A stretch of 52,129 nt of DNA from a virus (Duplodnaviria > Caudoviricetes): IMG/VR virus record IMGVR_UViG_3300020469_000065, positions 1 through 52,129 of that record. One strand, given 5' to 3'. The notes under the pieces are model-generated. The model was not told where the DNA came from. It did not search any database and was given only the letters and a program-made list of their open reading frames with translations. How positions within the stretch are numbered: position 1 is the stretch's first letter; each line of letters begins with the position of its first letter. Below are positions 2,154-50,132 of this stretch, piece after piece. A program made the translations under genes and the position numbers.

Positions 2154-3734
2154 ATGCCAAGATTAACGAAAAAGCAAATACTCAAAGAAATTGTTAAGTG
2201 TGGTAAAGACCCCTCCTACTTTCTAAAAAACTATGCCCGTATCTCTCACCCGATGCACGGGCTTATGTTGTTTAAGACCTATGATTATCAGGATCAGTTA
2301 CTAAAAGACTTTAACGACTACCGCTTCAATGTTATCAACAAAGGTCGCCAGCTAGGCATCTCAACGATTACGGCTGGCTACATTGTCTGGATGATGCTGT
2401 TTCACCGCGACAAAGCCATTCTTGTTATGGCAACCAAGTTTGAAACAGCAGGCAACTTGGTCCGCAAAGTTAAAAACATTATGAAGAACCTTCCTGACTG
2501 GATCAGGATAGCAAGTATCACAACCGACAACCGCACATCTTTTGAGTTGTCCAATGGCTCTTCTATCAAAGCTGCTTCTACCTCTGGTGATGCTGGTCGT
2601 TCCGAAGCCCTGTCGCTACTTGTTCTTGACGAGGCTGCGCACATTGAGGGTCTTGAAGATCTTTGGACCGGTCTGTATCCAACGCTATCAACTGGTGGTC
2701 GTTGCATCGCCATCTCTACGCCAAACGGCGTCGGTAACTGGTTTCATAAAACCTGTACAGGTGCTGAGAGTAACGACAACAATTTTTACCTTACAACCCT
2801 TATGTGGGATGTTCACCCTGATAGGGACGAAGAGTGGTTTAAGAAAGAAACCAAAAACATGTCTCGCCGACAAATTGCCCAGGAATTGGAGTGCAACTTC
2901 AATACTTCTGGCGAGACTGTAATCGATCCAGACAATATGGAATGGATTATGTCTAACATCCGAGAACCAAAGCACAAGACAGGCTTTGACAGAAACTTCT
3001 GGATCTGGGAAGAGCACGACCCAAGTTGTAATTATCTTCTTGCGGCAGATGTGGCAAGAGGCGATGGTGCTGATAGTTCCACATTTCACATTCTTAAACT
3101 TGAAACAATGGAGATTGTGAGTGAATACATGGGTAAGCCAACACCAGATCTCTATGCCAATATGTTAAACCAAGTTGGAAGAGAATACGGCAACTGTATG
3201 ATGGTTATAGAAAATAACTCTATTGGATACACTGTCATTGATAAGCTTGTAGAGTATGCTTATCCAAATTTGTATTATTCAATTAAATCCACACATGAAT
3301 ACATAGACCAGCATCTAGGCGAGCATCGTACAGGCGCCATCGCCGGTTTCTCAACTACAAGCAAGACCAGACCCTTGATTGTTGCCAAGTTAGAAGAGTT
3401 TGTTCGCAACAAACTAGTTAAGACGTATTCTTCACGTTTGGCAAACGAATTTCGTACTTTTATTTGGTACAACGGAAAGCCACAAGCCATGAGAGGCTAC
3501 AACGATGACTTGGTGATGGCTCTTGCGATTTGTTGTTGGGTTCGTGACACAGCCCTACAAACAAGCGCCCGAGATTTAAACTATCAAAAAGCTTTCGTTG
3601 ATGCGATAATGACTTCCAGAACTACCCTAAATACACAGATAAAAGGACAAATTGGCTACACGGGTGAAGATAATACTAGTAAAATGAACGAAGCAAAAAA
3701 TCTATATTCACAATATATGTGGATAATTAAGTGA
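2154..3734 (+). CDS. terL: Terminase large subunit (T4 gp17-like)
   Basis: Walker A KGRQLGIST, Walker B LLVLDEAA, motif III ISTPNG, nuclease AADVARG..D and DDLVMALA. Confidence 0.95.
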   Translation: MPRLTKKQILKEIVKCGKDPSYFLKNYARISHPMHGLMLFKTYDYQDQLLKDFNDYRFNVINKGRQLGISTITAGYIVWMMLFHRDKAILVMATKFETAGNLVRKVKNIMKNLPDWIRIASITTDNRTSFELSNGSSIKAASTSGDAGRSEALSLLVLDEAAHIEGLEDLWTGLYPTLSTGGRCIAISTPNGVGNWFHKTCTGAESNDNNFYLTTLMWDVHPDRDEEWFKKETKNMSRRQIAQELECNFNTSGETVIDPDNMEWIMSNIREPKHKTGFDRNFWIWEEHDPSCNYLLAADVARGDGADSSTFHILKLETMEIVSEYMGKPTPDLYANMLNQVGREYGNCMMVIENNSIGYTVIDKLVEYAYPNLYYSIKSTHEYIDQHLGEHRTGAIAGFSTTSKTRPLIVAKLEEFVRNKLVKTYSSRLANEFRTFIWYNGKPQAMRGYNDDLVMALAICCWVRDTALQTSARDLNYQKAFVDAIMTSRTTLNTQIKGQIGYTGEDNTSKMNEAKNLYSQYMWIIK

Positions 3735-3741
3735 GAAAATA

Positions 3742-5769
3742 ATGGCACCCAAAAATCCAAAGCAAGGCAAAAACCCCGCAAATAGAGATTCGCAATTATT
3801 CCGCGCTCTTACGAGGTTGTTCTCTGGTCCAATTATCAGTTATCGATCTGAGTCTGGTCGTAAGATACGCAGACAGCATCTCGACAAGTATTCTACAAGA
3901 TTCAAGTCTGCGTCAGGGCAGCAATTTAAAAAGCAATCTTATAACCCGCTTGACACTATCGCAGCAAACGCAATTGCCAACCAACGTAGATCAGAGCGAT
4001 ACATTGACTTTGACCAGATGGAGTACATGCCAGAGTTAGCATCTGCGCTTGACATCTACGCAGACGAAATGACCACATTTTCTGCTCTCTCGCCAATGCT
4101 TAACATTAAGTGCCGCAACGATGAAATCAAGGCTGTCCTTAACATACTTTATCACAACGTTATGAATATAGAGCACAACCTCTTTGGTTGGTGCCGCACG
4201 ATGTGTAAATATGGTGACTTCATTCTTTATCTTGACATTGATGACGAGATGGGTGTCCAATCTACGATCGCAATTCCTCTACAAGAGATAGAGAGATTAG
4301 AAGGTCTTGACGCGACAAACCCTAATTATGTTCAGTATCAGTGGAACTCTGCTGGGATGACATTTGAGAACTGGCAGATTGCCCACTTCCGTATCCTCGG
4401 TAATGACAAGTATTCGCCATACGGCACCTCTGTTCTTGAACCTGCTCGTCGTATCTGGCGCCAGCTTACCCTAATGGAAGACGCAATGATGGCTTACCGC
4501 ATTGTTCGTTCATCCGAGAGAAAGGTATTCAAGATTGACGTTGGTGCTATTCCGCCCCAAGAAGTTGAACAGTACATGCAGAAGATTGTCACTCAATTGA
4601 AGCGTCACACAATTGTCGATAAAGATACTGGTCGTATCGATCTTCGTTATAACCCACTCTCCATCGAAGAGGATTACTACATTCCTGTTCGCGCTGGTTC
4701 TGTCACCGATATCCAGAATCTTGGTGCTGGGCAGAACACAACCGCAATTGATGACATTAAATACCTACGCGATAAGATGTTCTCTGCGATTAAAATTCCC
4801 CAAGCATACCTTACGATGGGCGAAGGCGCACAGGAAGACAAGACCACTCTTGCGACAAAAGATATTCGCTTTGCCCGTACTATTCAGCGACTCCAGCGCT
4901 CCATTCTTCATGAGTTGGAGAAGGTCGGCATCATTCACCTTTACACTCTTGGTTATAGAGGAGAAGATCTTATAAACTTCAAACTCTCTCTCAATAACCC
5001 AAGTAAGATTGCCGAACTTCAAGAACTTGAGCACTGGAAGAACAAGTTTGATATTGCTGCTTCGGCAACTGAGGGATACTTCTCTCGTCGCTGGGTTGCC
5101 GACAATATCTTTGGTATGTCTCATGAAGAGTTCCTTCGCAACCAACGAGAACAATTTTACGATCGCAAGCACGACACCGCTCTTGAAGGAGTTGCTGAAG
5201 CTGCTGCTGGTGAAGCCGCCGGCGGTGGTGGCGGACTTGATCTCGGCGGGGAAGACGGAGGGCTTGACCTCGGTGGTGAAGAGGGCGGCGGGGAACTCGA
5301 CCTTGGGGGTGACGAAGGCGGTGGTGGTGAACCTGCTGCTGGCGAAGGCGGCGGCGAAGAAAGCGCTCTCCTGGCAGCGCCTCCTGGCTCCCGCGATTCA
5401 CCACGGCTCGCCAAGTCTCTTGGTAAGCGCGCGAGGACTGGAAAAAAATATACCACGCGCGGTGCCAAAGGAAAAATTCACCAAAGGGTGGCGGTAGACG
5501 GACGCAAGAGCAAAGGACCCCGCTCTAGAAGTTATGCTCGCATCGCGACTCCCGAAATGAACACCTACAGAACAAACAACCTTGGGGGCTCAGAGTTAAG
5601 ATCTCTTTCAAGGGGAACTTCTTTGGCACGGGGTATTTATGAAGAACAAGACCCTATTTATCTAAGAGAAGAAGAGGAAGAGATTGCTCTTCTTGAGGTA
5701 AATAACTCTGTTAAGTTCTTGCTTGAATCACTAGAGACCAAAGTTACGGAGAACAATGATGAAGAATAA
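3742..5769 (+). CDS. Portal protein (T4 gp20-like) with long acidic Gly-rich C-terminal tail
   Basis: LMEDAMMAYRIVRSSERKVFKIDVG, EDYYIPVR, DDIKYLRDKMFSAIKIP, DIRFARTIQRLQ; follows terL. Confidence 0.93.
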   Translation: MAPKNPKQGKNPANRDSQLFRALTRLFSGPIISYRSESGRKIRRQHLDKYSTRFKSASGQQFKKQSYNPLDTIAANAIANQRRSERYIDFDQMEYMPELASALDIYADEMTTFSALSPMLNIKCRNDEIKAVLNILYHNVMNIEHNLFGWCRTMCKYGDFILYLDIDDEMGVQSTIAIPLQEIERLEGLDATNPNYVQYQWNSAGMTFENWQIAHFRILGNDKYSPYGTSVLEPARRIWRQLTLMEDAMMAYRIVRSSERKVFKIDVGAIPPQEVEQYMQKIVTQLKRHTIVDKDTGRIDLRYNPLSIEEDYYIPVRAGSVTDIQNLGAGQNTTAIDDIKYLRDKMFSAIKIPQAYLTMGEGAQEDKTTLATKDIRFARTIQRLQRSILHELEKVGIIHLYTLGYRGEDLINFKLSLNNPSKIAELQELEHWKNKFDIAASATEGYFSRRWVADNIFGMSHEEFLRNQREQFYDRKHDTALEGVAEAAAGEAAGGGGGLDLGGEDGGLDLGGEEGGGELDLGGDEGGGGEPAAGEGGGEESALLAAPPGSRDSPRLAKSLGKRARTGKKYTTRGAKGKIHQRVAVDGRKSKGPRSRSYARIATPEMNTYRTNNLGGSELRSLSRGTSLARGIYEEQDPIYLREEEEEIALLEVNNSVKFLLESLETKVTENNDEE

Positions 5770-42826: not shown

Positions 42827-44224
42827 ATGCTTGCACACAAAGCAGACTTTGGAAGGTACGGTAAGTCCTTCCAAGAGGGGCTTGTTCAACTCATTTTTGA
42901 GGACAGACCCTTCGCAGACCAAATAACCGAAGTTCTAGACGTTGAGTTTCTAGAACTTGAATATCTTCGCACGTTTGTGGCGAAGATTGTTGAATACAGA
43001 GTAAAGTACGGAAAGCATCCATCCACAAATGCTATGATCTCCATACTTCGTACAGAGTTAGACCGAGAATCAGAAATCACACAACAACAAGTTCGTGACT
43101 ACTTTGCGAGAGTTCATACAAATGAATTAGCAGACGACATAGACTACATTAAAGAAACTTCTCTTGACTTCTGCCGAAAGCAAAAGTTAAAGGAAGCTAT
43201 GATGAGGTCTGTAAACCTTCTACAGACTTGCTCTTTTGATGAGATCTCGAAGGTAATTAATGATGCACTCAAATTAGGTTCAGAGAATAACTTTGGACAT
43301 GATTTCATTGCTGATTTTGAGGAAAGATATAAGCCAAAGTTCAGACTGCCAGTAACAACAGGGTGGAATGAAATTGATACTATCACAAGTGGCGGTCTTG
43401 GTAGAAATGAGCTTGGCGTCGTCATTGCTCCTACTGGCGCAGGAAAATCTATGGCGCTTGTCCATCTTGGTTCTCAAGCCATCAAAGACGGCAAGACTGT
43501 TGTTCACTATACCTTAGAACTACAAGATACAGTTGTTGCCTGTCGCTATGATTCTTGCATCACGGGATATCCGCTATCTGATTTGACCAATTTCAAAGAT
43601 GAAATCTTTGAGGAAATCAAGGGACTTGATGGGACACTGATCGTTAAAGAATACCCAACCAAGTCAGCTTCTACAAATACAATCAAGGCGCATCTATCCC
43701 GTTTAGTAAAGAGGGGTATAGAGCCCGGCATGATAATCGTAGATTACGCAGATTTGTTAAGACCTGTCGTAGTGCGGAAAGAAAAAAGAACGGAACTGGA
43801 GTCAATCTATGAGGAACTACGGGGGCTTTCTAATGAGTTTAACTGCCCTATTTGGACCGCTTCCCAGACCAACCGTTCTGGTCTAAACGCAGAAGTTGTG
43901 ACAATGGAACAGATTAGTGAAGCATTCAACAAGTGTTTCGTTGCTGATTTTATTTGCACACTCTCGCGTACTATTGAAGATAAACAAAACAATAGAGCAA
44001 AAATGTTCATTGCTAAGAATCGTAATGGACCGGATGGTATTGTTTATAATCTTTTCATGGATACATCAAATGTGTGCATTAAAATGTTGCCCAAGCCAGT
44101 TGTTCCTGCTGGTGTAGCGGCACAAGTCGCATCTAACCCAGTTGTTGTGACAGCCAAGGAACAAAAAGAAATATTAAAAAACAAGTATGATAAATTCAAA
44201 AAGCTAAGGAGTAAAGCAAAATGA
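42827..44224 (+). CDS. dnaB: Replicative DnaB-like helicase (T4 gp41-like)
   Basis: IAPTGAGKS Walker A, YTLE, IIVDYADLL, WTASQTNR, IAKNRNG. Confidence 0.92.
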   Translation: MLAHKADFGRYGKSFQEGLVQLIFEDRPFADQITEVLDVEFLELEYLRTFVAKIVEYRVKYGKHPSTNAMISILRTELDRESEITQQQVRDYFARVHTNELADDIDYIKETSLDFCRKQKLKEAMMRSVNLLQTCSFDEISKVINDALKLGSENNFGHDFIADFEERYKPKFRLPVTTGWNEIDTITSGGLGRNELGVVIAPTGAGKSMALVHLGSQAIKDGKTVVHYTLELQDTVVACRYDSCITGYPLSDLTNFKDEIFEEIKGLDGTLIVKEYPTKSASTNTIKAHLSRLVKRGIEPGMIIVDYADLLRPVVVRKEKRTELESIYEELRGLSNEFNCPIWTASQTNRSGLNAEVVTMEQISEAFNKCFVADFICTLSRTIEDKQNNRAKMFIAKNRNGPDGIVYNLFMDTSNVCIKMLPKPVVPAGVAAQVASNPVVVTAKEQKEILKNKYDKFKKLRSKAK

Positions 44225-46182
44225 GATCACACATTCGTAGATTTAAGTTATCAGATACATTTATAGAACAGTATAGGGATCGTGAGGTCCCTTGGGGACC
44301 TCTTGGTTATGTCACGTTTAAACGGACGTATGCCCGCCGCTTAAGTGAATTTGATGAAGAAGCAACTGGCACCGAAGAATGGCACCAGACATGCCGTCGT
44401 GTCATTGAGGGTATGTTCGACATGCAGAAACAGCATGTCTACAAGCTTGGTCTTGAGTGGAATGACCAGAAAGCACAGCGCACAGCAAAGGATGCGTTTG
44501 ATCGTCTCTTCAACCTTAAGTGGACGCCCCCCGGTCGTGGCTTATGGATGATGGGAACTAAGTTCGTTAACACCCGCACAGCAGCAGGTCTGTTCAATTG
44601 TGCGTTTCGTTCTACCCGAGAGCTTAACACCAAGGGTGGTTATCTGTTCGCTTGGATGATGGACGCGCTCATGCTTGGTATCGGTGTCGGCTTTGACACT
44701 CTTGGTGCTGACACAATCACTATTCAGGAGCCAGAATTCACAAATGAAACACACGTCATTCCAGACTCTCGTGAGGGATGGGTTGATTCTGTAAAGATCT
44801 TATTGAACGGTTTTCTGTTTGGCTCAAAGATTCCTACTTTTGACTATTCAGCAATACGTCCGTATGGTGCTCCTATTCGCGGCTTTGGTGGCACATCAAG
44901 CGGCTCCGGTCCTCTTGAGGAACTACATAAGGACTTGTCAGAACTTTACAATGCCAGGATTGGTGAGGAATTAACTTCTGTTGATATTGTAGATACGGAA
45001 AATTTGATTGGTCGTTGCGTTGTTGCTGGTAATGTTCGTAGGTCTGCTGCGCTAGCTCTTGGCAACCACGAAGACCGCGAATATCTTCAGATGAAGAATG
45101 ATTCTGAGAAACTTGCCCACCACCGTTGGGGTTCCAATAACTCCTTTCACGCACTTGTTGGTCAGGACTATACTTGGCACGCTGAACAATCACAGAAGAA
45201 CGGAGAGCCAGGATACATCTGGCTTGACAACGCAAGAACTCGTGGTCGCTTTGCTGATCCTCCGAGAGACGATGATAAAAATGTTATGGGCTTCAATCCC
45301 TGCGTGGAGCAACAGTTGGAAGATGCTGAGTTGTGCTGTCTTGTTGAGACTTTCCCAGCAAAGCACGAAACTTACGAAGATTACCTCGCAACTCTTAAGA
45401 TCGCATACCTTTATGGCAAGACTGTTACACTTGCCAACACACATTGGCCAGAAACTAATGCCAAAATGCTTAAGAACCGTCGTATCGGTCTTTCACAGTC
45501 TGGTGTTGTCCAGGCTTTCAACAAGTTCGGTCGCCGTGAGTTGCTACAATGGTGTGATAATGCCTACGAGCATGTAAAAGAGTTGGATGCAGAATACTCT
45601 GATTGGCTTTGTATTCCAAAGTCAGTAAGAATGACAAGCATCAAACCTTCTGGCACAGTTTCACTTCTCAATGGTTCTACCCCCGGCATCCATTACCCCG
45701 AGGATGAATACTACATTCGTCGTATTCGTTTTGCGGCTGACAGTGATATGCTACCTGCCCTCGCAGCAGCAGGATATAAGATTGAACCTGATCACTACTC
45801 TCCAAACACTATGTGTGTAGAGTTTCCTGTCCACGAAGAACACTTCATCAAGGGCAAGAGAGAAATTACAATGTGGGAGCAGCTAGAGATTGCAGCACAG
45901 TACCAGCATTATTGGGCAGACAACTCTGTTTCTATTACTGTGACTTTTAAACCCGAAGAAGCAGCAGACATTAAGACCGCTCTTGAGATGTACGAGACCA
46001 GACTAAAGGCTGTATCATTCTTGCGCTATGAAGAGACAGGTTATGTTCAGGCTCCTTACGAGCCAATAACCCGAGAACAATACGAAGAGATGAGTGAAGG
46101 CATTACCCCGGTTCAGCGTTTTAACACCGAAGAAGGTGGAGAAGGAACTAAGTTTTGCGATGGTGAATCATGTATAATGTGA
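44221..46182 (+). CDS. nrdJ: Class II (adenosylcobalamin-dependent) ribonucleotide reductase
   Basis: PPGRGLW, NCAF, VAGNVRRSA, NPCVEQ, IKPSGTVSLL, C-terminal FCDGESC. Confidence 0.92.
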   Translation: MRSHIRRFKLSDTFIEQYRDREVPWGPLGYVTFKRTYARRLSEFDEEATGTEEWHQTCRRVIEGMFDMQKQHVYKLGLEWNDQKAQRTAKDAFDRLFNLKWTPPGRGLWMMGTKFVNTRTAAGLFNCAFRSTRELNTKGGYLFAWMMDALMLGIGVGFDTLGADTITIQEPEFTNETHVIPDSREGWVDSVKILLNGFLFGSKIPTFDYSAIRPYGAPIRGFGGTSSGSGPLEELHKDLSELYNARIGEELTSVDIVDTENLIGRCVVAGNVRRSAALALGNHEDREYLQMKNDSEKLAHHRWGSNNSFHALVGQDYTWHAEQSQKNGEPGYIWLDNARTRGRFADPPRDDDKNVMGFNPCVEQQLEDAELCCLVETFPAKHETYEDYLATLKIAYLYGKTVTLANTHWPETNAKMLKNRRIGLSQSGVVQAFNKFGRRELLQWCDNAYEHVKELDAEYSDWLCIPKSVRMTSIKPSGTVSLLNGSTPGIHYPEDEYYIRRIRFAADSDMLPALAAAGYKIEPDHYSPNTMCVEFPVHEEHFIKGKREITMWEQLEIAAQYQHYWADNSVSITVTFKPEEAADIKTALEMYETRLKAVSFLRYEETGYVQAPYEPITREQYEEMSEGITPVQRFNTEEGGEGTKFCDGESCIM

Positions 46183-47617: not shown

Positions 47618-48325
47618 ATGACCAGCAAATCAATTGAATTATACGGCGACGGCATTGGTCGCGTCGATTATGTAAATCATATGGGTGACGACCTTACCGT
47701 CGTAAACTCTGCCCGAGTATCATTCGGAGTAGAAAAGGAGAATTTAGATGAACGTGATAAGAAGCTTATCAACTACCTCATCAAACACAAACATACCTCT
47801 ACTCTTGAGCATAATCTCATTACTTTCAGGTTTAGTGTTCCTATGTTCGTTCGGTCTCAGCACCATCGTCATAGAACATGGTCTTATAATGAGATTAGTA
47901 GACGCTACACTGATGTAAACATCAACTTCTACGAACCAAAAGAGTTCAGAACACAACACAAGAGCAACCGGCAGGCAAGCAACGCCGAAGAGTTGATTGA
48001 TCCAGATCTGTTTCTCGCAGGAACACACAAGGTTGCGGCTTCCGAAGCATTCCGAGGACACAATAAGATTTCTCTGGAATTGTTCAACAGCCTTATCGAA
48101 GCAGGCGTTTGCCGAGAACAGGCAAGAGGGGTTCTACCACAGAACCTCTACACCGAATACTACGGCACAGTCAATCTGTCTAACCTCTTGAAGTTCATTG
48201 ACCTTCGCACACACGAAGGGGCACAATGGGAGATCCAAAAGGTTGCCGAGGCTTGTTTGGAAATTGCTACGGATCTGTTCCCTGAAACTGTGGGTGCTTA
48301 TCGTAGGATTAGGAACGAAGAATGA
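47618..48325 (+). CDS. thyX: Flavin-dependent thymidylate synthase
   Basis: VNSARVS, H.S.LEH, RHRTWSYNEISRRY signature, EQARGVLP, AQWEI. Confidence 0.95.
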   Translation: MTSKSIELYGDGIGRVDYVNHMGDDLTVVNSARVSFGVEKENLDERDKKLINYLIKHKHTSTLEHNLITFRFSVPMFVRSQHHRHRTWSYNEISRRYTDVNINFYEPKEFRTQHKSNRQASNAEELIDPDLFLAGTHKVAASEAFRGHNKISLELFNSLIEAGVCREQARGVLPQNLYTEYYGTVNLSNLLKFIDLRTHEGAQWEIQKVAEACLEIATDLFPETVGAYRRIRNEE

Positions 48326-48594
48326 TTACAATAAAAAGCACATTTAACTTGACCTCACAGACGTTTAGCGAATACTTTAATTCAAATATAGATTTGGAAA
48401 TTAGAAAGTATCGTGGACGAAAACGCCTTAGAAAGAAAAGAGCGAAAGCTGCCCTTAGAGCACGATGGATGGCGGAAAGTTTTTTATCTACTATTTCTCG
48501 CAGAATTGATTATCATTCGATTTGTGATCAGTTTATGGAGATTGAAGATTTAAGAATTCTTTCTGCAATACCTTTTAAGGAGAACGAAGAATGA
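48322..48594 (+). CDS. Cassette 1: 90-aa protein with capsid-like motifs
   Basis: Starts in the thyX-end repeat; ends KENEE*. Confidence 0.7.
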   Translation: MITIKSTFNLTSQTFSEYFNSNIDLEIRKYRGRKRLRKKRAKAALRARWMAESFLSTISRRIDYHSICDQFMEIEDLRILSAIPFKENEE

Positions 48595-48740
48595 AAAAGC
48601 AAAATAGCTTTCCACTTTGGTTTATGTTGGTGTTTATTGCACCGTTTATTTTTGGATATGCTCTTTGGGGCGAGTTTATTTATGGTGATTGGAAGTGTGG
48701 GTTTGCTGAATGTCGTATACTCAAGGAAAACGAAGAATGA
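48591..48740 (+). CDS. Cassette 2: 49-aa membrane peptide (not in ORF track)
   Basis: MKKQNSFPLWFMLVFIAPFIFGYALWGEFIYGDWKCGFAECRILKENEE*; repeat to repeat in frame. Confidence 0.75.
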   Translation: MKKQNSFPLWFMLVFIAPFIFGYALWGEFIYGDWKCGFAECRILKENEE

Positions 48741-48961
48741 GTGACAAACCAAAGGTTAAAGGGGACTTTTGCCCCCGTTGCGATAAAAATGTGAAATGGT
48801 TTCCTGTTCCTGATTCACTGGCCTCTTTCTGTAAAGGGTGCGGTTTTGTAAGAGTAGGGTTTGGCGAGACAGATGAAAGTGGAATAAGACTTTATGATGT
48901 TGGAGCCACGATACAACAGTGGTTAGAAAATGTTTTTGGCACGAAGGAGAACGAAGAATGA
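48737..48961 (+). CDS. Cassette 3: 74-aa Zn-ribbon-like protein
   Basis: MSDKPK...CPRC...CKGC...KENEE*. Confidence 0.75.
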   Translation: MSDKPKVKGDFCPRCDKNVKWFPVPDSLASFCKGCGFVRVGFGETDESGIRLYDVGATIQQWLENVFGTKENEE

Positions 48962-49182
48962 AAGTTGGTGATAAAGTTCAGTATTGTGGCTACGACACCC
49001 TTGGCGCAACAGGCGAGATCATAAGAGAAAAAGAAAAAACTCTTTACTATAGTAAGTGGGAACGCGAAGGTGACGATAGGTATTGTATGTGTTATCTTGT
49101 AAGATACACAATGCCAAACGGCAAGACTATCAACAATGTTGCGAGAATAGAAGATCTAAAACTACTGGAGAACGAAGAATGA
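48958..49182 (+). CDS. Cassette 4: 74-aa MKVGD (KOW/SH3-like) protein
   Basis: MKVGDKVQY...GATGEII...YLVRY...DLKLLENEE*. Confidence 0.75.
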   Translation: MKVGDKVQYCGYDTLGATGEIIREKEKTLYYSKWEREGDDRYCMCYLVRYTMPNGKTINNVARIEDLKLLENEE

Positions 49183-49460
49183 GTGACAATGAAAAACGAC
49201 TGCTTAAATCCTTGATGGGCTTTTCAAATGCACACAGTATTTTGCTGGAAAGGTGCAGGAGATTAAAGAGAGATTTTGATTCTGCTATATCTTATGGTGA
49301 TATCGTTGATGATGGGATGGATACTGCTGCTGAACTACTTTCAAGATTTCTTGAGGATGTGTTCCTGTTGGAGAACGAAGAAGACACTGCTTATCTAAAA
49401 AAGAATCTTTTTGAATCACTTAAAGTGCCAAAAGAGTTTCTTAAGGAGAACGAAGAATGA
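49179..49460 (+). CDS. Cassette 5: 93-aa protein with portal-like C-terminal segment
   Basis: MSDNEK...LLENEE-DTAYLKKNLFESLKVPKEFL-KENEE*. Confidence 0.75.
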   Translation: MSDNEKRLLKSLMGFSNAHSILLERCRRLKRDFDSAISYGDIVDDGMDTAAELLSRFLEDVFLLENEEDTAYLKKNLFESLKVPKEFLKENEE

Positions 49461-49831
49461 AAGTCGGTGATCTGATAACTCCACAAGGAGACAACATCTT
49501 TGTTGTTTTCCAAAAGAAGTGGATTATGTCGCGCCCCCGTTATGCAAGTATGGGAGCACCACCAAGTGCTGATTTTTATCCACAAAGCACCACCGAGCAT
49601 CGTGTTGCAGAAGTTGCCGAGGACAATCAAATCTTGTTCCAAGGATTGACTTTGGGTGTTTGGCCAAGCGAAGAGTTTAAGGTTGCGATTTTCAATGAAG
49701 AAGAATACCGAGTCTATCTAAACGAGAACTACATTAAGTGCTTTTATTGTAGTTCTGTTTTCAGCATCAATCAATTTGATGACGATTACGCTATCTGCGG
49801 CAAGTGCCGAGATGAGGAGAACGAAGAATGA
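49457..49831 (+). CDS. Cassette 6: 124-aa MKVGD protein with C-terminal CxxC..CxxC
   Basis: MKVGDLI...CFYC...CGKCRDEENEE*. Confidence 0.75.
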   Translation: MKVGDLITPQGDNIFVVFQKKWIMSRPRYASMGAPPSADFYPQSTTEHRVAEVAEDNQILFQGLTLGVWPSEEFKVAIFNEEEYRVYLNENYIKCFYCSSVFSINQFDDDYAICGKCRDEENEE

Positions 49832-50034
49832 AAGTCGGTGATAAAGTTCGTCTTGCTCATTTCCACGGCTCTACCGGAGATCAAATCTTGGCTGAAAGCG
49901 GAGCCGCAGGAGTAATCAAGAGCATTGAAGAAGAACCTGAACCAAATGTTCTTACACGATGTGTAGAAGTTCAGTGGAACGACGGCATCAGTTGGCACTT
50001 TCGGCATACACTTATTTTGGAGAACGAAGAATGA
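49828..50034 (+). CDS. Cassette 7: 68-aa MKVGD (KOW/SH3-like) protein
   Basis: MKVGDKVRL...GVIKSI...VEVQWNDG...LILENEE*. Confidence 0.75.
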   Translation: MKVGDKVRLAHFHGSTGDQILAESGAAGVIKSIEEEPEPNVLTRCVEVQWNDGISWHFRHTLILENEE

Positions 50035-50132
50035 TTGAATACCACCAGTTTGCATATTTTATTGCAGTAATATGGACCACTTGTATGGTCACTTTCTTTT
50101 GGCTTATATCAAGGCTAGGACCAAAGAAGTGA
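50031..50132 (+). CDS. Terminal 33-aa hydrophobic peptide after the last repeat (not in ORF track)
   Basis: MIEYHQFAYFIAVIWTTCMVTFFWLISRLGPKK*; starts at the repeat ATG. Confidence 0.6.
   Translation: MIEYHQFAYFIAVIWTTCMVTFFWLISRLGPKK

Follow-up and report, generated by a model that had tools for sequence, protein, structure and literature searches.

The window analyzed here is the whole stretch of 52,129 bases, a virus record of a marine T4-like phage with a completeness estimate of 29%. It encodes a large terminase (2154-3734), a ribonucleotide reductase (44221-46182), thyX (47618-48325), and its own T4-type portal protein (3742..5769, + strand; 675 aa). The portal gene is intact and intein-free, and its product matches Pfam PF07230 over profile positions 2-428 of 433 (E 2e-75) and T4 gp20 structures (E 1e-25). 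Past the Pfam domain, the portal carries a long C-terminal extension (5200-5769, residues ~490-675) with a Gly/Glu-rich low-complexity run followed by a basic stretch and an acidic end. A cassette array of eight small ORFs chained by the repeat GGAGAACGAAGAATGA begins at the end of thyX (48311..50132, + strand). In this 16-nt repeat, a Shine-Dalgarno sequence, the ..ENEE codons, a stop codon, and the next ATG overlap. The window contains 7 copies at 2 mismatches or fewer compared to 0.09 expected, and a weaker copy with 3 mismatches lies at the thyX end. Relatives show the same repeat between other cassettes, and the same cassettes are found flanked by the repeat in other orders and combinations in the window, L029, L045, L065, L066, and other loci. 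A blastn search of the array against cultured phages gave no match.

Cassettes 4, 6, and 7 (starts at 48958, 49457, and 49828) all begin with MKVGD(K/L), so that their common sequence extends beyond the 16-nt repeat into the coding start. Starts of this type also occur in many cassettes of related loci, and the longer homology across them probably helps recombination. Cassette 6 (49457-49831) is an in-frame chimera of an 83-aa cassette and a zinc-ribbon module. Its first 83 residues form a separate cassette ending in ENEE in L029, L045, and L066, and its last ~40 residues (..YLNENYIKCFYCSSVF..CGKCRDEENEE) form the zinc-ribbon module, which stands alone in L053 and behind the portal mini-gene described below in L005, L032, L034, L035, L051, L052, and L054.

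Cassette 5 (49179..49460, + strand; 93 aa) consists of a 68-aa helical protein, to which no function is assigned, and a 21-aa tail with the sequence EDTAYLKKNLFESLKVPKEFL (49380..49442, + strand). The two parts are joined at an internal partial repeat, GGAGAACGAAGAAGAC (49370..49385, + strand), which follows the repeat up to GAAGAA and then reads GAC. Here GGAGAACGAAGAA (49370-49382) continues as GAC instead of TGA, and the joint is read as ..LLENEE-D.. with no stop. A full repeat (49445..49460, + strand) then supplies both the end of cassette 5 (KENEE and the stop) and the start of cassette 6. The partial repeat lacking a stop, the segment behind it, and their coordinates had been described in an earlier, sequence-only reading of this DNA, and all are confirmed from the sequence. 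That reading had also suggested looking for homologues of cassette 5 that lack the tail, and these turned out to be the rule. A search with cassette 5 yields 27 clusters, 17 of which are homologues of its first 68 residues and 10 of which are unrelated proteins with the tail. All of the other cassette-5 clusters (17/17) are 67-69 aa long, have an ENEE-type C-terminus, and carry no tail, and the copy of cassette 5 in L066 is likewise tail-less.

The junction is bridged by contigs from two further DNA runs, X4 (49117-49417, 0 differences) and X5 (49174-49422, 2 differences), neither of which was marked as a potential source of the window, so the fusion is not an assembly artefact of the record; contig joints with sides of only 20-23 letters at the shared repeat were left out of this comparison. 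Two metatranscriptomic libraries, both made from one sample, yielded the contigs X11 and X16, which span 48824-49366 and 49208-49365 and agree with cassettes 3-5 at every position. Both end at the internal repeat, so that the tail is absent from them, and they are no proof of transcription. A pattern search of viral contigs with the N-terminal part of cassette 5 gave 11 pattern matches, none of which was confirmed, and the tail written as a degenerate DNA pattern gave 0 matches in viral contigs. In the ESM Atlas, cassette 5 had only one lead, at 0.75, and no family.

The sequence-only reading had aligned the tail to a segment of the phage's own portal, and this likeness proves to be real. The portal counterpart, DDIKYLRDKMFSAIKIPQAYL, lies at 4750-4812 and corresponds to portal residues 337-357. 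The ungapped alignment gives 7 of 21 identical residues, as had been reported, and a BLOSUM62 score of 51. The portal segment is the best match of the tail in a six-frame translation of the whole window, where the runner-up scores 27, and tail shuffles reach 51 anywhere in the window in 3 of 2000 cases. In Pfam, Portal_T4 is the sole match of the tail alone (E 0.0026) and is in register (profile positions 284-304 of 433), with 17 bits, short of the family's gathering score (22.9). Cassette 5 matches a single PHROG, number 213, 'portal protein' (E 0.0061), and the mini-gene P0021 matches it at E 8.5e-6. We also scored the tail on a portal-region profile made from the corresponding segment of the 150 best portal representatives. 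It reaches 17.9 bits, a score attained by 0 of 3000 shuffles (maximum 5.8) and by 0 of 2718 natural 21-mers taken from the window's remaining long ORFs (maximum 3.6); on the same profile, full mini-genes reach 21-35 bits. The tail is identical to the portal-profile consensus at 10 of 21 positions compared to 7 of 21 for its own portal.

The segment had been called one of the well-conserved stretches of portals, in agreement with D338 and P353, which are invariant in 28 aligned portals. With a portal-conserved column defined as one in which a single residue is present at 60% or more, the tail spans 16 such columns, and the family consensus is identical to the portals in 8 of them, similar in 5, and different in 3. 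Neither of the outcomes that the sequence-only reading had named as refuting, a profile score no better than that of shuffles or homologues conserving other residues than portals do, was observed. A chance likeness of two amphipathic helices, which might be suspected from just 7 of 21 identities to the own portal, is refuted by the shuffle and 21-mer controls, by the portal being the only match in both Pfam and PHROGs, and by longer relatives in which the match runs on to YNPLSIDEDFY with the right order and spacing. Sequence comparison shows homology between the tail and stem helix alpha7 of T4-type portals. The architecture of a portal, with wing, stem, clip, and crown in a dodecameric ring, is not found in these fragments, as the window tail covers profile positions 284-304 and the mini-genes cover about 250-307. 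By this comparison, the tail comes from a portal without itself being one.

The tail belongs to a larger family. Three of the 10 tail-sharing clusters are 61-62 aa long, read MSNKKNVDYNPLSIDEDFYITPRE..EDIAYLKKNLFESLKVPKEFLKENEE, and match portal residues 303-357 (YNPLSIEEDYYIPVR..DDIKYLRDKMFSAIKIPQAYL; 4648..4812, + strand), which is the stretch copied by the mini-gene family. These mini-genes, of about 61 residues, occur in related marine phages, within cassette arrays that have the ENEE repeat. The tail motif is present in 52 distinct ORFs, comprising 40 with the whole clip part, 4 with a partial clip part, and 8 with the tail only. The module stands alone in 13 ORFs; in others, it is placed behind a helical, Cys-rich, or MKVGDL-type domain or before a zinc-ribbon module. 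The window tail fits the family motif, D(I/T)AYLxKxxFE(S/A)LK(V/I)PKE(F/Y)L followed by the repeat-encoded KENEE end, and it has the same sequence as the L066 tail and 88-100% identity to those of P0019-P0024. In a search of the window's record with P0021, the matches are confined to the tail (E 2.7e-13, residues 30-61 at 49362-49457) and the portal (E 2.8e-7). The clip-strand part upstream of the tail, YNPLSIDEDFYITPRE, is absent in the window, which contains just the helix half; this half lacks a separate start codon and is read as an extension of cassette 5. The window copy is one of the 8 tail-only forms among the 52 ORFs, and this alignment shows that the window holds just half of a longer module derived from a portal.

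The 8 tail-only forms are attached to 7 different N-terminal partners, 6 of which are also found tail-less, and they recur, with as many as 22 member sequences in a cluster, on 7 contigs. The L065 tail is attached to a homologue of the window's cassette 7. L066 comes from a 98-kb contig that carries homologues of cassettes 7 and 5 near-identical to those of the window, and its tail is attached to another cassette immediately upstream of the tail-less cassette 5. A broken member of the family was found in L046 (850-1119), where the frame exits the tail after ..EYIAYLKKNLF into unrelated residues; this copy looks decayed. A tblastn search with P0021 against a cultured-phage collection of 50,697 records found no match. 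We also looked among short proteins for further portal-fragment families; the 10 examined of 73 matches are pieces of real portals that are frame-shifted or cut, with 54-93% identity, and do not form families apart. A full-text literature search covering main articles retrieved no paper on a portal fragment, mimic, paralogue, or decoy or on a truncated or dominant-negative portal gene, and within that literature we found no previous description of a family of portal-fragment mini-genes.

The mini-gene is ~38% identical to the window portal in protein sequence, and its DNA is identical to that of the window portal at 28-31 of 45 and 34 of 63 positions. The low DNA identity indicates that the copy is old and has been kept at the protein level. 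Because the identity of the mini-gene to the window's own portal is low, the donor portal cannot be named from these sequences.

The portals of the relatives frequently carry inteins. Of the 150 closest portal representatives (P0029-P0178), 95 have one or more insertions that measure at least 100 aa. The mapped insertions include 48 at window-portal residue 306/307 (RYNPL/S..EDY) and 6 at 330/331 (GGQ/NTG, in the channel loop), with a scatter at 357-372. Four of 4 insertions checked combine intein splicing domains with homing endonuclease domains of the HNH, LAGLIDADG, or Hom_end type. The mini-gene runs unbroken across the main intein site. The hot spot at YNPL/S suggested the idea that the mini-gene mimics a homing site at the DNA level, which we rejected, as just 28-31 of 45 DNA positions are identical and synonymous sites vary freely.

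By alignment, window portal residues 303-357 correspond to about residues 325-380 of T4 gp20, and the tail corresponds to about 360-380. In the sections of the T4 portal structure paper cited here (PMC4493910), the clip domain comprises gp20 residues 279-358 and the channel loop 350-359, and the stem helix alpha7 (359-377) and the tunnel loop (374-398) follow. The same source describes an inter-subunit three-stranded sheet in the clip, with one strand supplied by one subunit and the other two by its neighbour, and stem helices that pack around the ring (PMC4493910). The alignment shows that the mini-gene covers the last clip strand and alpha7, whereas the window tail covers alpha7. In the mini-genes, the channel-loop columns are replaced, the portal TLxGG becoming EFSQE, which forms a short acidic linker where a portal has the loop that contacts DNA. 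In the AlphaFold2 model of the P0021 monomer, residues 32-48 form a helix, with a block pLDDT of about 79-86, and the strand part is coil. A predicted complex of two copies of portal residues 75-480 with P0021, based on the family alignment and run with no controls, scored under the mark and so speaks neither for nor against binding.

The joints between the tail and its partners point to how the fusions arose. In the repeat, the joint reads GGAGAACGAAGAA/TGA; in the linker of the mini-gene, it reads GAGCAAGAAGAA/GAC; and in the window and L065, it reads GGAGAACGAAGAA/GAC. The joint of L066, GGAGAACCAAGAAGAC, is a different breakpoint. A crossover between the repeat and the look-alike linker inside the mini-gene would produce such a fusion and would remove the clip half, leaving a start-less mini-cassette between a partial and a full repeat. 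The joint would then have stayed in use as a crossover point, which would have attached the same tail to many different cassettes. The joint sequences lead us to infer fusion by recombination between repeat and linker, with two or more breakpoints. The proposal that the tail was appended as a mini-cassette by repeat-mediated fusion had already been made in the sequence-only reading; the tail is start-less and lies at a repeat, and the joints and the tail-less homologues agree with it.

We estimated selection on the module from 20 unique 49-codon modules representing 34 loci, with one 48-codon module and the broken L046 copy excluded. The pooled NG86 dN/dS is 0.29 for the whole module (column bootstrap 0.16-0.46), 0.11 for the clip part (0.03-0.29), 0.36 for the linker (0.12-0.95), and 0.48 for the tail (0.24-0.97), these figures being indicative because the pairs are non-independent and come from a recombining family. 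The ratio-of-means estimates are 0.26 for the module, 0.11 for the clip part, 0.98 for the linker, and 0.43 for the tail; the linker value is unstable, as it shifts from 0.36 to 0.98 between the two estimates. As a yardstick, a fused partner domain has a dN/dS of 0.15. The dS of the clip part is 0.58, and 0 of 2000 bootstraps reach a dN/dS of 1 for the family. These values show purifying selection on the full module at the sequence level, indicating that it encodes a working protein. The most strongly constrained part is the clip half (YNPLSIDEDFYITPRE), which is the half missing from the window, and the estimated constraint on the tail is moderate, with an upper bootstrap bound of 0.97. As the tail-only copies are near-identical, the dN/dS values refer to full modules and not to tail-only forms.

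Over 32 portal-conserved columns, the consensus of the family keeps the portal residue in 16, has a similar one in 5, and differs in 11, with 4 of the differences located in the channel loop. Three differences affect the helix, at columns 60 (K to N), 63 (A to E), and 70 (A to E), and they have the spacing of one helical face, the hydrophobic face being kept. The replacements remain within the portal repertoire. The portal residues kept by the tail and the mini-genes are D338, Y341, L342, L346/F347, L350, K351, P353, and L357 (window portal numbering), and R302, which is invariant in portals, is not kept in the family. The sequences show that the full module encodes a protein under constraint, which combines two portal elements involved in subunit packing.

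We compared the locus with known systems. Relative to T4-type gp20 (PF07230, PHROG 213; structures 3JA7 and 6UZC), the tail and the mini-genes are in register with the last clip strand and alpha7. However, they comprise only a 21-residue (window) or about 55-residue (family) fragment without the wing, crown, clip tip, or channel and tunnel loops, and therefore cannot form a portal; moreover, the fragment lies among small accessory ORFs and not in the head module. MicroProteins are dominant-negative fragments of larger proteins. The mini-genes resemble them in that a small protein is derived from a multi-domain parent, with an interaction element kept and the working parts lost: the clip strand and alpha7 are retained, and the channel-loop columns are replaced.

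The array resembles the PeSL cassettes of T4-type phages, in which, as described in the passages cited, short repeats between accessory genes act as crossovers that shuffle, delete, and swap ORFs (PMC2839356, PMC4122927). PeSLs are described in the same passages as promoter and terminator stem-loops between genes (PMC2839356, PMC4122927), whereas the repeat in the window is a translational-coupling signal of 16 nt in which a ribosome-binding site, a stop, and a start overlap and part of which is coding (..ENEE). As in PeSL cassettes, small ORFs are shuffled here among related phages by way of the repeat, but a sigma-70-type early promoter and a terminator stem-loop are not found at each junction in the window. 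Our scan gave 20 promoter-like sites compared to 15.6 +/- 3.8 in shuffles and 11 terminator-like sites compared to 6.6 +/- 2.6 in shuffles; neither number is above the shuffles, and none of the sites of either kind is at a junction. Because the repeat is partly coding, crossovers at it can fuse reading frames and make chimeric proteins. The ENEE repeat is a shuffling device like PeSLs in its effect, and it yields new chimeric proteins in addition to new gene orders.

The account that we favour for the module combines a family of portal-derived mini-genes, fusion mediated by the repeat, and mimicry of the unassembled portal, and we consider this account as a whole to be fairly probable. The mini-protein would mimic a surface of clip and stem that only unassembled portal monomers expose, and it would compete for the binders of that surface, which may be a host portal sensor or portal protomers. 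For mimicry of some kind, judged from the sequences, we see about an even chance.

The alternative with the best prospects is that the window tail, and perhaps the whole family, is a functionless by-product, that is, portal DNA captured at a recombination hot spot and kept by in-frame junctions that allow the downstream cassettes to be translated. This is a real possibility, if not the one on which we would settle. The array yields many other in-frame chimeras, such as cassette 6; the L046 copy is clearly broken; all 17 of the other cassette-5 clusters lack the tail; and the constraint on the tail is moderate. For the family as a whole, however, such a view is at odds with the dN/dS of 0.11 for the clip part and 0.29 overall, with no bootstrap out of 2000 at 1, and with replacements that stay within the portal repertoire, and the recurrence of the tail-only forms argues against it more generally. 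The window copy has to be judged separately. Its tail may retain mimic activity rather than ride along in frame, a suggestion that we can make only tentatively. As the clip half is missing and the other cassette-5 clusters are without exception tail-less, a passenger role for this copy is somewhat more likely than an active one. As a passenger, the in-frame tail would preserve the stop/start overlap for cassette 6, and in-frame fusions could survive by keeping translational coupling to the next cassette.

If the mini-protein is a mimic, one target could be a bacterial immune receptor. In the excerpts of the literature consulted, portals are reported to be sensed by several such receptors, the known portal sensors are reported to contact this part of the portal, and SpbK is reported to dock on portal clip domains. 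An immune decoy, as proposed in the sequence-only reading, would be a peptide made before the real portal, occupying a STAND sensor of the Avs4 or Avs11 type or a TIR sensor of the SpbK type without triggering it, and we regard this as rather unlikely. The location of the gene in a variable array of small ORFs and its being present, truncated, or absent in close relatives fit host-specific accessory functions, and the module keeps portal-conserved residues. The known anti-Avs proteins ORF55 and ORF83 are also products of small accessory phage genes that counter sensors of conserved proteins, and in the part of the source cited, they are ligase-like and nucleotide-binding proteins, not trigger mimics (10.1101/2025.06.06.658234). 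A trigger-derived decoy would differ from them in mechanism, and since none of the anti-Avs proteins listed in that part of the source is a trigger mimic, such a niche would be open (10.1101/2025.06.06.658234). Against a decoy, Avs proteins are described in the cited passages as recognising folds via extended interfaces (PMC13581612), of which 21-55 residues modelled with helices only would cover little. A mimic might equally trigger the sensor, and the promoter scan, which does not exceed the shuffles, also speaks against it.

The other target could be the portal itself. A portal-binding microprotein would dock on protomers at the place where the clip strand and alpha7 of the neighbour fit, and it would poison or time ring assembly, either in co-infecting rivals or in the phage itself, or bring the fused domains to the portal vertex; this, too, has a small probability in our estimation. 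The inter-subunit sheet of the T4 clip and the stem helices packed round the ring, as presented in the cited sections (PMC4493910), would offer such a place. The retention of the strand and of the hydrophobic face of alpha7, together with two Ala to Glu changes elsewhere and the loss of the channel loop, is what would be expected of a one-sided cap, and the module tolerates many N- and C-terminal fusions. There is also a precedent, in that a 24-residue gp20 peptide (288-311) binds gp17 and inhibits DNA packaging, according to the cited sections (PMC4493910). However, that peptide is a synthetic one taken from another region of the clip (PMC4493910), and its partner is a different one. R302 is lost in the family, and a phage making such a protein would risk poisoning its own assembly.

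In its most specific form, the decoy proposal holds that the family is a trigger-derived anti-defence decoy, copied from the clip and stem surface of the monomer and produced earlier than the portal itself, that saturates an Avs4-like sensor of unassembled portal without activating it and that is passed around and grafted onto other proteins via the ENEE repeat. We consider it distinctly unlikely that all of this applies. If a decoy role is true, the family would be the first phage countermeasure that works by imitating a structural protein of the phage itself that the host senses. Portals rank with the most conserved proteins of phages, and a swappable accessory copy of part of one, kept under selection, is a natural candidate for a decoy or for an inhibitor of portal assembly between competing phages, neither of which has yet been described. 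Both ideas can be tested directly with the 61-residue protein.
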